Assembly (NCBI GenBank): GCA_030670545.1
Contig: DAOVBM010000001.1
Span: 17,932 to 81,931, forward strand
Reading direction: 5' to 3'
Source of the DNA: Candidatus Woesearchaeota archaeon
Lineage (GTDB): Archaea > Nanobdellota > Nanobdellia > Woesearchaeales > JAGLGH01
DNA: 64,000 nucleotides
The position numbers and the translations under genes were made by a program. The stretch's first letter is position 1; the number at the start of each line of letters is the position of its first letter. Below, piece after piece: positions 41,835 to 45,065 of the stretch. The notes beneath the pieces are model-generated. The model had not been told where the DNA came from, did no database searches, and saw only the letters and a program-made list of their open reading frames with translations.

Positions 41835-42305
41835 ATGAAGAAATCAATCAAAAATGGAAACAAAACTATATCAATCATATTTTTGGCATCAGTCGCAATA
41901 TTTATTCTACTCATAGCTTATTTTGCAGCTCCGACTTCAGCACAACTGAAGCAGACAATCTTTCCCCTTGCTGCTGTTCTGGCACTCACTTTCTTTTTAT
42001 TGGGGGCAGCATTGATAGTCCTGACTGTAAAGCAAAAGATTAAAGGAAAGCTAAAAAAGTATCTAATATTGACTGGAGCCTCATCTGCAGGATTCCCCGC
42101 TTCTGTCCTGCTGCACAACTTTTTTTATGGATTAGGCATAATCGCTGCCAATATCACAGTATTGAGATATCTGATGGAAGGCCTGCATGCTGCATTTTTC
42201 ATCATTGCAATATTTGTATGCCCAATTGGATTTATTGTTGGAGCGATTGGGAGTATTGTGATTTTTTTAAAGAAAAATGAACCTTTTTTACGGCATCACA
42301 AATAA
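41835..42305 (+). CDS. Integral membrane protein with four predicted TM helices.
   Basis: Hydrophobic segments. Confidence 0.45.
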   Translation: MKKSIKNGNKTISIIFLASVAIFILLIAYFAAPTSAQLKQTIFPLAAVLALTFFLLGAALIVLTVKQKIKGKLKKYLILTGASSAGFPASVLLHNFFYGLGIIAANITVLRYLMEGLHAAFFIIAIFVCPIGFIVGAIGSIVIFLKKNEPFLRHHK

Positions 42306-43264
42306 TTATAATAAACCGCAAAGAATTTGGAATATGTCTCTTTTGTCTTTGCCAAAGCAAATCTCATTAAAGGAATAAATTGATTATGATCTGCTGCATG
42401 CAATGCCTTAAGATATTTTGCCCTCTGCGTATTTCTTAGGATAATAGGAAAATAACCCTGTTTTATGAGTATATAATTAAGCAGCATCCTCCCCACCCTG
42501 CCATTGCCATCGCTAAATGGATGAATGCTTTCAAAGCGATGGTGGAACCTGAAAGCCAATTCCAGAGGATACATCTTTTCCTTATTTTCATTATACCATA
42601 TCAGCAGATTTTTCATTTCCTGCGCAACATTTTCAGGAGCAGTAAGTTTAACATTGATTCCCAGCAGGAAATTAGGAATTTTTTTGTATCCTATACGAGC
42701 ATCAATATTTTTCACAATCTTTTTATGCAAATCAATGATCAAATATTCTGTTATCTCTTTCCTTAAGGTCAGGAGATGCGAAAAGACAGCATAAGAATTT
42801 CTGGCATCATAAACTTCTCTCAAATCCGCTGAATTGCTCACCCTATTTTCGAAAACAATATCTGAAAAATTCTTCAATGTCAATGAATTACCCTCTAAAG
42901 CATTAGATTCAAAGACAAAATTTGCTACAAACCTCAACTTTATATCTTCCCAGTCCTTTTTGCTTAAAGATCTCCTGATCTCACGATACTTTAGGTTCAT
43001 CTCCTCAATCTTCCTTATCTCTTCAAGAGAGATTGGATACGTAATCTTATACTGTTTCTGAGCTTTTTCAACAACAAGAGAAAGTATCTTTTTATCTGCT
43101 TCAAGCTCAAATTTTTTCATTTCTTCCTTTATTCTTGCTTTTGTAAAATCATCTTTCTTCCCAAGATACTTAGAAGCCTTGAATACCTTATCCCTTATCC
43201 GCATTGATTTATCTAAGTAAAGATACCTATTCCCTTTTGATTCTCTCTCCTGAATAAAGACCAT
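42296..43264 (-). CDS. Fic/Doc-family protein, class II. It has the Fic motif HPFSDGNGRVGR and the intramolecular inhibitory motif SNALEGN.
   Basis: Motifs in the translation. The ATG at 43264 is preferred over the TTG at 43270. Confidence 0.85.
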   Translation of the reverse strand: MVFIQERESKGNRYLYLDKSMRIRDKVFKASKYLGKKDDFTKARIKEEMKKFELEADKKILSLVVEKAQKQYKITYPISLEEIRKIEEMNLKYREIRRSLSKKDWEDIKLRFVANFVFESNALEGNSLTLKNFSDIVFENRVSNSADLREVYDARNSYAVFSHLLTLRKEITEYLIIDLHKKIVKNIDARIGYKKIPNFLLGINVKLTAPENVAQEMKNLLIWYNENKEKMYPLELAFRFHHRFESIHPFSDGNGRVGRMLLNYILIKQGYFPIILRNTQRAKYLKALHAADHNQFIPLMRFALAKTKETYSKFFAVYYNYL

Positions 43265-43272
43265 ATTCAAGG

Positions 43273-43318
43273 GTTATACCTACCGTTATTTAAATCTTTC
43301 TATTTCTGTAGGTATAAC
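43273..43318 (-). promoter_or_regulatory. Perfect 11-bp inverted repeat GTTATACCTAC-N24-GTAGGTATAAC bracketing a TATA-like box, 8 nt upstream of the Fic ATG. Candidate operator plus leaderless promoter.
   Basis: Read directly from the sequence. Confidence 0.6.
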
Positions 43319-43389
43319 TTTGCAGCAATAATTTATCAGCTTTTTATATCCTGAATTAAAAGCTGCATTATAAGCAGAAAGAGAGTCTA

Positions 43390-43677
43390 TTAATAAACAT
43401 TATCATGGTGGTCAAAATCAACAAACAAAATGAAATTTCTGTTTAAATCAACATGGAATGTCAGCACGAAATGTTTATCTATATGAACCCTCTGCAAATC
43501 TTTGAGATTATATCTGAGGTTTTTGTATCTTTTAATTCCATCTTCATCATAATTAATTATCTCTTTAATCTTTTTATTAATTATTGCTGCTTTCTCTTTG
43601 TCTTTTTTCAGCAATTTTCTGATTTTTAGTCTAAGTTCATCAGAGATATCAAAGTTGAACATTAGTCTGCCCCGCAT
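43390..43677 (-). CDS. RelE/YoeB-like toxin (…LRYNLKDLQRVHIDKHFVLTFHVDLNRNFILFVDFDHHDNVY).
   Basis: C-terminal family pattern; overlaps the upstream small ORF by 16 nt. Confidence 0.6.
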   Translation of the reverse strand: MRGRLMFNFDISDELRLKIRKLLKKDKEKAAIINKKIKEIINYDEDGIKRYKNLRYNLKDLQRVHIDKHFVLTFHVDLNRNFILFVDFDHHDNVY

Positions 43678-43946
43678 AATCTGTCAAGTTCTTTAATACT
43701 CATCTTCTTATGGCCGTATTTTCTTATGTGCCTTTCCTTGATCTCTAACACTTTTTTGATGTACTGATTCTCAGCCTCTTTTTCTACTACCTCATCACCA
43801 TACATCTCTGCAAATTTATGAAGCGCTGCAGATTTGTCTTTAAGACCGAATTTTGCTTTTAGAACATTAAGTACTTTATTTGTATAATCATCTAATTCTA
43901 ATCTTGCAAGAACCATTGTCACAACCTCCTGTGCACTGGTGTGCAT
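43662..43946 (-). CDS. Putative antitoxin partner of the RelE-like toxin.
   Basis: Position and size. Its start sits in a duplicated ATGCACACCAG...ATGCACACCAG segment, so the true start is uncertain. Confidence 0.4.
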   Translation of the reverse strand: MHTSAQEVVTMVLARLELDDYTNKVLNVLKAKFGLKDKSAALHKFAEMYGDEVVEKEAENQYIKKVLEIKERHIRKYGHKKMSIKELDRLCGAD

Positions 43947-43972
43947 CTTATGTGTAGCTGGTGTGCATATGA

Positions 43973-44034
43973 ACTATATAAAGATTTCGCTTATTTGTGC
44001 CCGTACATTCTATTTTTTCTTTTTGGTGTGCCCA
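43973..44034 (-). promoter_or_regulatory. TATA box (tttatata) with direct repeats of the TGTGCCC(G/A)TACA half-site at 43983-43994 and 44023-44034 upstream of the toxin-antitoxin pair. The second repeat lies inside the Fic2 3' coding end.
   Basis: Same 12-mer as in the Fic2 operator. Confidence 0.5.
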
Positions 44035-44960
44035 TACATTCTTATCTGGTCGATGATCAATCTTAATATTCTTGTAACATACCCCTTATAATTTCCTTTA
44101 TCTGCAATCTCAAGCGTTTGATAATATGCTTCCCTTCTTTCATACGGAATAAAAAACATAGGATATCCTTTTTTCATAAGAATGAAATTCATTATTGCCC
44201 TTGCAGTTCTTCCATTTCCGTCTTCAAAAGGATGAATCCATGTGAGTTTGGCATGAGTTAAAGAAGCAAGTTCAAAAGGATGAAGCCTGTTTTTGTCTGC
44301 GCTATACCATTTAAATAAGTTATCAAGATGTTTCTTTAGTTCCTCATGCTTTGGAGGTACATGCTCTGAGCCTTCTATCTGCACATTAAAAAATCTTATT
44401 CTGCCTCCATAAATAACTCCTGTATTCTTTGTTAAAATGCCATTAAGCTTTTCCAGCATCTTTTTATTAAAATCCCCTTTATATTTTTTCAGGTAATCCA
44501 TGCACTCTTTGCCATTGATAGCCTCATTATAATCTTCTGCCCTGATTCCTGAAGGGATTACTTTGTCTTTTAGTATAAGAGCAGTCTGTCTTAATGTCAA
44601 CCTGTTTCCTTCAATCGCATTGCTGTTGTAAGTGAATCTGATTACAAAATCTCCCTCCAGTTTTTTCCTTGCGCTCTGGGGGGTGCGCCTCAACCATTCT
44701 TTATAACTTTCACTCAAATCCTGCAGGGTTTCTGCATCTTCGTCAGTTAAGTAAAGGAATCTTGATCTGCGTTTGATTAATCCTTCTTCTTTTGCCTTTT
44801 CTTCAATCTTTTTTGCAAACCTGCTGACTTCCTTTTTTGATGGTCTTTTGTCCCCAGCATATATCCTGATTTTTTTCCATTTATGCTTGCTGATCCTTAT
44901 ATTCTTGGTCAGGTAATAGTATTCTTTTTTTCCTCTTCTTATAGTTTCTATGTACGTCAT
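44010..44960 (-). CDS. Fic/Doc-family protein, class II, with Fic motif HPFEDGNGRTAR and inhibitory motif SNAIEGN. Paralog of 42296..43264.
   Basis: Motifs in the translation. Confidence 0.85.
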   Translation of the reverse strand: MTYIETIRRGKKEYYYLTKNIRISKHKWKKIRIYAGDKRPSKKEVSRFAKKIEEKAKEEGLIKRRSRFLYLTDEDAETLQDLSESYKEWLRRTPQSARKKLEGDFVIRFTYNSNAIEGNRLTLRQTALILKDKVIPSGIRAEDYNEAINGKECMDYLKKYKGDFNKKMLEKLNGILTKNTGVIYGGRIRFFNVQIEGSEHVPPKHEELKKHLDNLFKWYSADKNRLHPFELASLTHAKLTWIHPFEDGNGRTARAIMNFILMKKGYPMFFIPYERREAYYQTLEIADKGNYKGYVTRILRLIIDQIRMYGHTKKKK

Positions 44961-44966
44961 ATTAGT

Positions 44967-45015
44967 TGTATGGGCACAGAACTATATAAAGATTTCGGTT
45001 AGATGTGCCCATACA
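44967..45015 (-). promoter_or_regulatory. Perfect 12-bp inverted repeat TGTATGGGCACA-N25-TGTGCCCATACA bracketing the TATA box tatataaa, 6 nt upstream of the Fic2 ATG.
   Basis: Read directly from the sequence. Same architecture as the Fic1 operator but different half-site sequence. Confidence 0.65.
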
Positions 45016-45065
45016 ATATATTAATTTTAATTCGCATCATATAAAATATAATATAACTGGCAATA

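Follow-up and report, generated by a model that had tools for sequence, protein, structure and literature searches.

The Fic locus and its promoters

This work concerns two genes for Fic proteins, enzymes that AMPylate other proteins, and the inverted repeats around their promoters, which were found in a 64-kb stretch of DNA (referred to below as the window) with a G+C content of about 36%, assigned to a DPANN archaeon because the closest homologues of its proteins carry the source names Candidatus Woesearchaeota, Nanoarchaeota or Nanoarchaeia. The two genes lie on the minus strand and are separated by an antitoxin and a toxin gene, the order being Fic2, antitoxin, toxin and Fic1, with all four on the same strand (Table 1). 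The start of Fic1 was placed at the ATG at position 43264 rather than at the TTG at 43270, since its orthologues begin with MVF(I/V)QERK.

Both gene products can be assigned to class II of the Fic proteins, as had been claimed in the original prediction from the motif HPF(S/E)DGNGR and the SNA(L/I)EG helix. They match PF02661 with scores of 75.6 and 74.4 bits against a gathering cut-off of 24 and carry the catalytic motif HxFx(D/E)GNGRxxR, in the form of HPFSDGNGRVGR in Fic1 and HPFEDGNGRTAR in Fic2, with the inhibitory motif located ahead of the Fic core (SNALEG, residues 120-125 of Fic1; SNAIEG, residues 113-118 of Fic2) and its SxxxEG pattern invariant in alignments of the homologues of either family. 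The best solved relative of the Fic2-family profile is the Fic domain of human FICD (E 1e-35, residues 86-295 only), followed in the Fic core by the Bacteroides structure 3cuc (E 2e-26). In the profile alignment SNAIEGN of the Fic2 family falls on the inhibitory TVAIEGN of FICD, which we take to be the motif holding Glu234, and it is because of this match that the class II assignment is regarded as correct.

The domain order of Fic1 is an N-terminal beta domain (approximately residues 1-40), a helical linker, SNALEG and the Fic motif, and the same order is found in Fic2, the two proteins being 26% identical end to end in a pairwise comparison that included the N-terminal domain. Residues 1-85 gave no sequence match in the PDB and are devoid of tetratricopeptide (TPR) repeats, the AlphaFold2 model showing instead one helix and three strands. 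At the other end the chain stops right after the Fic core, with neither an extension nor a helix-turn-helix (HTH). Homologues are numerous, with 643 for Fic1 (51-93% identical and named Woesearchaeota or Nanoarchaeota) and more than 1200 for Fic2, and a literature search found no paper on Fic proteins of DPANN or Woesearchaeota.

Upstream of each Fic gene an inverted repeat encloses the TATA box and the purine-rich sequence before it that resembles a transcription factor B recognition element (BRE), with spacers of 24 and 25 nucleotides (nt) for Fic1 and Fic2 and at the distances from the ATG codons that had been reported earlier, all of which could be confirmed in the sequence. The arms are perfect over 11 nt in Fic1 and 12 nt in Fic2, those of Fic2 extending to 13 nt at 100% complementarity in a repeat search. 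An 11/11 inverted repeat in the same geometry was obtained in 1 of 760 shuffles, and among the upstream regions of 49 open reading frames (ORFs) of the window such repeats occur only at the two Fic genes. When the 64 kb were searched for further half-sites with at most one mismatch, only their own operators were found, plus two extra Fic2-type copies that were already known.

The evidence also supports the earlier claim that the Fic transcripts are leaderless, because in both genes the TATA 8-mer is followed by exactly 22 nt up to the ATG, with no Shine-Dalgarno sequence. Leaderless transcription would be ordinary for the organism, as a distance of 22-25 nt from TATA box to ATG is also seen at other first genes of the window. 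Among 35 homologous promoters there are 33 with a distance of 21-23 nt, counted from where the TATA box ends.

Table 1. Genes and promoter elements of the Fic locus, with positions in the window
Feature	Position	Strand	Remarks
Fic1, class II (FICD-like) Fic protein, 322 amino acids (aa)	42296..43264	-	Pfam PF02661, E 5.9e-21
Fic1 operator, distal half-site GTTATACCTAC	43318-43308	-	ends 13 nt upstream of TATA box
Fic1 TATA box TTTAAATA	43294-43287	-	preceded by BRE-like AGAAAGA; 22 nt to ATG
Fic1 operator, promoter-proximal half-site GTAGGTATAAC	43283-43273	-	3 nt after TATA box, 8 nt before ATG
YafQ/RelE-like toxin, 90 aa	43390..43662	-	NCBIfam TIGR00053
DUF2683-like antitoxin, 84 aa	43662..43916	-	names of homologues
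Direct repeats ATGCACACCAG (43946-43936 and 43968-43958, 22 nt start to start)	43936..43968	-	between TATA box and Shine-Dalgarno sequence, replacing proximal half-site
Toxin-antitoxin TATA box TTTATATA	43975..43982	-	repeat search
Fic2-family 3' operator pair: TGTATGGGCACA (44038-44027) and TGTACGGGCACA (44007-43996)	43996..44038	-	half-site search, repeat search
Fic2, class II (FICD-like) Fic protein, 316 aa	44010..44960	-	Pfam PF02661, E 1.4e-20
Fic2 operator, distal half-site TGTATGGGCACA	45015-45004	-	ends 13 nt upstream of TATA box
Fic2 TATA box TTTATATA	44990-44983	-	preceded by BRE-like CGAAATC; 22 nt to ATG
Fic2 operator, promoter-proximal half-site TGTGCCCATACA	44978-44967	-	4 nt after TATA box, 6 nt before ATG

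Conservation and covariation of the operators

Homologous loci were drawn from genomes and metagenomes, about 50 related loci being compared with neighbourhoods of 1.5-3 kb on each side of each Fic gene. Among the archaeal homologues, 28 of 38 distinct promoters carry inverted arms that match at 10/11 or more in this geometry, compared with 10 of 760 shuffles and 3 of the 49 upstream regions of the window, two of these three being the Fic genes themselves. Alignment of 31 Fic1-family promoters gave the operator consensus AGTTAnnnCTACA-N22-TGTAGnnnTAACT, with the TTTA of the TATA box invariant. In the same alignment both arms had changed together at 8 of the 13 arm positions (36 cells), a level reached in none of 500 shuffles, and this covariation signal was lost when the register was slid by 1-3 columns.

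The half-sites are specific to the family of the gene that they precede. Fic1 orthologues always come with Fic1-type sites and Fic2 orthologues always with Fic2-type sites, and in divergent relatives the same architecture is built from new half-sites, namely TTGTCCACA/TGTGGACAA in L006 and L007 and AGGTGACTACA/TGTGGTCACCT in L010, a member of a third Fic family.

Arms that covary like a helix might instead belong to a hairpin or cruciform with a role in ending or processing the transcript from upstream, and the Fic1 repeat of the window does lie downstream of the toxin-antitoxin operon. However, the loop of such a structure would be 22-26 nt long and would hold the invariant BRE/TATA, the proximal arm would lie upstream of the predicted start of the leaderless mRNA, and G:T combinations between the arms, the intermediates of a changing helix, are rare, with only 7 cells changed on one side as against 36 changed on both. 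The upstream neighbour is moreover divergent in 9 of 33 loci and more than 150 nt away in some others, and the sequences are family-specific, all of which makes a hairpin very improbable. Covariation with rare G:T combinations, a TATA box in the loop and divergent neighbours speak in favour of a dyad in the DNA that a protein recognises, and the comparison supports the inverted repeats as real family-specific operators, that is, as candidate protein-read sites.

The N-terminal domain as candidate reader

No neighbouring gene is conserved beside the operator among 41 loci, the best non-Fic family being present at 6 of them. The only non-Fic domain of Fic1 and Fic2 themselves is the N-terminal domain, which is modelled with pLDDT (predicted local distance difference test) values of 87-92 in two AlphaFold2 models and for which DSSP assigns strands to residues 2-9, 12-24 and 27-36 and a helix to residues 42-58. 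This topology, a three-stranded antiparallel sheet lying on a helix, is that of DNA-binding domains of the AP2 and integrase Arm types, and the net charge of residues 1-45, counted from the sequence, is approximately +11 in Fic2 and +7 in Fic1.

Among 28 full-length Fic1-family members the distance between operators correlates with the distance in residues 1-40 (r = 0.515), and still does so when the Fic domain is controlled for (partial correlation 0.48, Mantel p = 2e-4), while the reverse partial correlation, of operator with Fic domain, is -0.21. In strand 2, Y-(L/I/V)-Y accompanies promoters of the type ...CCTACA, and Y-A-Y those of the type ...(A/C)ACTACA. Indirectly, these observations suggest that operator specificity resides in the N-terminal domain. 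This domain of the Fic protein is most probably the cognate reader, because no neighbour is conserved and because the operator co-diverges with residues 1-40 but does not do so with the Fic domain. The original prediction had already named this domain as a possible regulator of its own gene, and that part is supported; the HTH that it proposed to look for in the first 60 or so residues has not, being ruled out by the two AlphaFold2 models with their three beta strands and one helix.

The alternative is that the palindromes are operators of a separate, unlinked transcription factor for each Fic family, with the N-terminal domain serving, for example, in substrate recognition, as does the N-terminal TPR domain of FICD, which binds the substrate BiP (PMC8065156). 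Searches with the N-terminal domain of these proteins brought up no known DNA-binding fold: a search of the BFVD gave nothing below E 0.1, and Pfam Arm-DNA-bind_5 matched in just 2 of 29 members, so that no known fold was convincingly matched. The neighbourhood view extends 1.5-3 kb per side, so that a distant regulator would fall outside it. On the other hand, no regulator-like neighbour is conserved across the 41 loci, a co-evolving unlinked factor would be needed for each paralogue in every genome, the operator co-diverges with the N-terminal domain specifically and not with the rest of the protein, and a precedent for a Fic protein as its own repressor exists in CccR. A separate factor is therefore regarded as unlikely, and the Fic N-terminal domain remains the preferred reader.

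In a profile search of 1.84 billion representatives the N-terminal domain was found almost only on Fic-length proteins or fragments. The exceptions are P0268 and P0318, proteins of approximately 570 aa that end in a PEP-utilizers mobile domain instead of Fic.

A second group of homologues, from metagenome loci (L121-L160), has the same N-terminal beta domain, in the form MPKIYKKF...KIQVYLGK, behind promoters of the sigma-70 type (TTGACA-N17-TATAAT), because of which these loci look bacterial and are probably related to the candidate phyla radiation (CPR). In 28 of 30 members of the group a conserved CCTAA, often within TATACCTAAC, stands 6-10 nt before the ATG in the place of a Shine-Dalgarno sequence; it resembles the archaeal Fic1 half-site TATACCTAC, and no inverted partner was seen in the 70 nt upstream.

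The 3' operator pair of Fic2

Fic2-type half-sites are also present at the other end of the Fic2 gene. Of the two extra copies in the window, the first is exact and lies within the last Fic2 codons, M-Y-G-H, and the second has one mismatch; they are direct repeats, the second standing 13 nt upstream of the toxin-antitoxin TATA box, in the geometry of the Fic2 promoter. All 12 of the Fic2-family loci examined have two 3' half-sites located between positions -29 and +35 relative to the stop codon, with only 4 hits elsewhere in 61 kb, and the pair is inverted in 8 of these loci and direct in 4. The first half-site is usually placed in the last codons, the protein following the DNA, so that Y-G-H is encoded by TATGGGCAC and, in L007, F-V-H by TTTGTCCAC, matching the gene's own operator; in L006 the site is located after the stop codon. 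A search of the Fic1 family for a 3' operator copy found none. Possible roles of the pair are looping, control of the downstream gene, or the marking of cassette ends.

Two further observations were made at such 3' ends. In the closest Fic2 orthologue (L161, 79% identical) the second 3' half-site, TGTATGGGCACA, at positions 2018-2060, forms the first codons (M-Y-G-H) of a ThiI/THUMP gene that starts 2 nt past the Fic2 stop codon. In L004 another inverted repeat, AGGTGACCACA-N13-TAGTCACCT (positions 3965-4005), lies just past the Fic2-type 3' pair; it resembles the third-family operator of L010 and is followed by a leucyl-tRNA synthetase-like gene, not by Fic.

The presence of operator pairs at both ends of Fic2-family genes could mean that composite inverted repeats bound the gene and are the ends, or remnants of the ends, of a small mobile cassette, their overlap with the promoter being secondary. 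The mirroring of the 5' pair by the 3' pair in L001, L002 and L162 (A...B' gene B...A') is in keeping with this, as are the varied contexts and variable presence of the genes, L171 for example having the flanking genes and a remnant half-site but no Fic2. Yet the Fic1 family lacks a 3' copy, no gene for a transposase or integrase was found nearby, the placement with respect to TATA box and ATG varies by no more than 1-2 nt, one 3' half-site lies inside coding sequence, and no relatives were found on viral contigs. We consider an origin as cassette ends quite improbable, and the repeats are treated in what follows as operators.

The toxin-antitoxin operon

The toxin gene product matches TIGR00053 (YafQ) with E 1.5e-14 over residues 3-90 (model positions 3-91 of 92), at 54.3 bits and thus below the cut-off of 87.25, and RelE_StbE weakly (E 0.014); it gave no Pfam or PDB sequence match. 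The antitoxin has 43 homologues, several of which are named 'DUF2683 family protein' by NCBI or JGI, and its own sequence had no Pfam, NCBIfam or PDB match. Its gene lies directly upstream of that of the toxin and the two are translationally coupled, stop and start overlapping as TAATG, with an AGGAGG Shine-Dalgarno sequence at 43925-43930, 8 nt before the antitoxin ATG. The gene pair is kept in L171 and L172.

Over 44 nt the promoter of this operon repeats the distal half of the Fic2 promoter with 86% identity. Homologous toxin-antitoxin operons in L170, where the pair is followed by Fic1, and in L171, which has the same upstream gene (for a 291-aa protein) and no Fic2, keep the TATA box and the same ATGCACACCAG repeats without any Fic2-type site beside the TATA box. 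For this reason the ATGCACACCAG repeats can be regarded as the putative operator of the toxin-antitoxin operon itself, and the Fic2-type sites next to its promoter as inherited, judging by this comparison, from the ancestral 3' element of Fic2 rather than as its own. In 11 Fic2 loci outside the window no such operon lies downstream, according to gene tables and inspection of the sequence. It had been proposed that the Fic2 half-sites in front of this operon and in the Fic2 3' end place both units under one repressor; the direct repeats are real, but the case for a shared repressor is weak, given that the 3' pair accompanies Fic2 at every one of the 12 loci and that the toxin-antitoxin operon has repeats of its own. 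Control of the operon by Fic2 is possible in this genome, and is not a conserved feature.

Several observations concern the surroundings of this operon. In the closest syntenic relative (L170, positions 387-485) the toxin gene is cut to 32 codons and the antitoxin is intact. In L171 the gene for the 291-aa protein is directly followed by the toxin-antitoxin operon, without Fic2 or the 106-aa ORF that adjoins this gene in the window, and a remnant, ATACAGGCACAAATAA, is found approximately 80 nt upstream of the toxin-antitoxin TATA box. In the window the 291-aa protein (gene 45376-46251) has a weak NTP_transf_2 match (E 0.057) and its gene overlaps the 106-aa ORF by 11 nt (45066-46251), so the two could be another pair of the toxin-antitoxin kind. 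Upstream of the same gene, at 46252-46300 on the minus strand, TTTATAAA is followed by the palindrome GGTATA-tttcat-TATACC, which ends 2 nt before the ATG and has TATACC in common with the Fic1 half-site, at a quite different spacing.

Other features of the window

Scans of the 64 kb for tRNA genes and Rfam families gave no match, and a scan for sigma-70 promoters and intrinsic terminators stayed at chance level, as expected for an archaeon. On the minus strand there is a single ORF of 3877 aa at 1324-12957 and, at 31728-35188, a set of three adjoining, overlapping ORFs of 311-428 aa, which may be tandem paralogues since the 45-nt sequences upstream of the first two are almost identical; the three matches to the motif ATTATACCAAC arise from these ORFs.

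Discussion

We favour, with a moderate degree of confidence, the reading that each Fic gene is a self-contained unit that is negatively autoregulated by a dimer of its product through the N-terminal domains. The analysis established the sites with their geometry, conservation and arm covariation, as well as the class of fold to which the N-terminal domain belongs and the fact that this domain diverges along with the operator. From these we infer that Fic itself binds its sites, in the form of a dimer and with a repressive effect. The protein would dimerise through its Fic core, thereby setting two N-terminal domains far apart, and each of these basic domains would read one half-site of 11-13 bp, the inverted half-sites being 35-37 bp apart from centre to centre and enclosing the BRE/TATA. 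The transcription start should coincide with the ATG, because the mRNA is predicted to be leaderless, and the proximal half-site would thus lie downstream of the TATA box and ahead of this start. Once occupied, the sites would block the recruitment of TATA-binding protein, transcription factor B and RNA polymerase, and the enzyme would limit its own synthesis; auto-repression is proposed because RNA polymerase has to bind in the region of the proximal site. Since their half-sites differ in sequence, the two paralogues would be insulated from each other.

With regard to dimerisation, the invariant PSGxRAEDYNEAING of the Fic2 family aligns with the FICD segment PGASLEEQNEVIG, around a residue substituted in the PDB chain, a segment that we take to contain the dimer-interface residues numbered K256 and L258. 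The conservation of this segment is compatible with dimerisation of these Fic proteins, though it does not amount to proof.

A number of points weigh against such autoregulation by a symmetric dimer: approximately 12% of the arm cells are non-complementary, the arms are clearly asymmetric in some promoters (L108, L109 and L115), direct repeats make up four of the twelve Fic2 3' pairs, an arrangement that does not sit easily with strict symmetry of the dimer, and the Mantel test leaves some shared ancestry in the co-divergence of operator and N-terminal domain.

A more far-reaching version, which we put forward as speculative and rather doubtful, holds that the beta domain of 40 residues represents a new type of DNA-binding fold, that the genes are single-chain, self-repressing modules akin to toxin-antitoxin systems, that they act as a bistable switch between dimer and monomer, and that the 3' pair serves in looping or in downstream control. 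If this were true, such modules would be widespread in DPANN archaea, with homologues in apparently CPR-type bacteria. FICD is a deAMPylase as a dimer and an AMPylase as a monomer (PMC6826200). If the present proteins behaved in the same way, the split operator would be matched only by the dimer, in which the enzyme is restrained. A change to the monomer would then turn on AMPylation and de-repress the gene together, resulting in a bistable stress switch, and in the Fic2 family the 3' pair would permit looping of the whole gene or control of a downstream promoter.

Fic enzymes are dangerous to their own cell, and how their dose is limited is thus a central question. To our knowledge self-repression by a Fic protein has so far been demonstrated only for the bacterial CccR, and the present findings suggest that DPANN archaea, organisms that are unculturable and about whose gene regulation almost nothing is known, arrived at the same logic by way of a different DNA-binding module; no paper describing self-regulating Fic genes of DPANN was found in our literature search. 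The Fic1-family consensus, its natural specificity variants and the presence of two insulated paralogues in one genome make recognition of the operator, and with it a possible new DNA-binding fold, directly testable with recombinant proteins. As human FICD is the closest solved relative of the catalytic core, the system may also illuminate the evolution of FICD-type regulation.

Comparison with known systems

The archaeal repressors MDR1, LrpA, Phr, NrpR and TrmB have their binding sites downstream of the TATA box and ahead of the start site, and the proximal half-site of the Fic operators is located where these proteins keep RNA polymerase from being recruited. These repressors are HTH, winged HTH or ribbon-helix-helix proteins with compact operators, and we know of no dyad split by approximately 24 bp that encloses BRE/TATA.

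FICD/HYPE, EfFic, SoFic and BtFic resemble the proteins described here in the Fic core, the closest solved relatives being the cores of FICD and of the Bacteroides structure 3cuc, and in the (S/T)xxxE(G/N) helix on the N-terminal side of the same chain. FICD, however, has a membrane anchor and TPR repeats where Fic1 and Fic2 have a 40-residue beta domain, and SoFic and BtFic have a C-terminal winged helix that Fic1 and Fic2 lack.

In function Fic1 and Fic2 look like a fused version of the type II toxin-antitoxin systems, which include those of class I Fic proteins (VbhT/VbhA and FicT/FicA). A candidate DNA-binding part, a neutralising element in the form of the inhibitory helix, and a toxin-type enzyme succeed one another along the chain, a palindromic operator lies over each gene's own promoter, and the genes are accessory, variably present and found among other toxin-antitoxin genes. 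Fic1 and Fic2 differ from such systems in being one polypeptide with no labile antitoxin, and their toxicity is only putative.

The closest parallel is with CccR of Yersinia pseudotuberculosis, which is both a Fic toxin and a transcription factor and represses its own promoter (PMC9755527). The CccR operator, AGATAATCAT-N26-ATGATAATCT, consists of 10-bp inverted repeats across its own -35 and -10 boxes, and the long spacer is explained by a back-to-back Fic dimer that holds two HTH domains approximately 70 Å apart (PMC9755527). The Fic operators of the DPANN archaea are similarly inverted repeats with a long spacer over their own core promoter, with arms of 11-13 bp and spacers of 22-26 bp, and if the N-terminal domain binds DNA, the candidate reader would likewise be a Fic enzyme with a DNA-binding domain of its own. 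CccR is nevertheless a bacterial protein with a C-terminal HTH and an operator over sigma-70 -35 and -10 boxes, and it is secreted as a type VI secretion system effector, whereas here we are dealing with an archaeon, an N-terminal beta-sheet candidate with no detectable relation to HTH, a TATA/BRE promoter, a predicted leaderless mRNA and no secretion context. The system proposed here would work like CccR, but its domain make-up is not the one by which CccR is defined.

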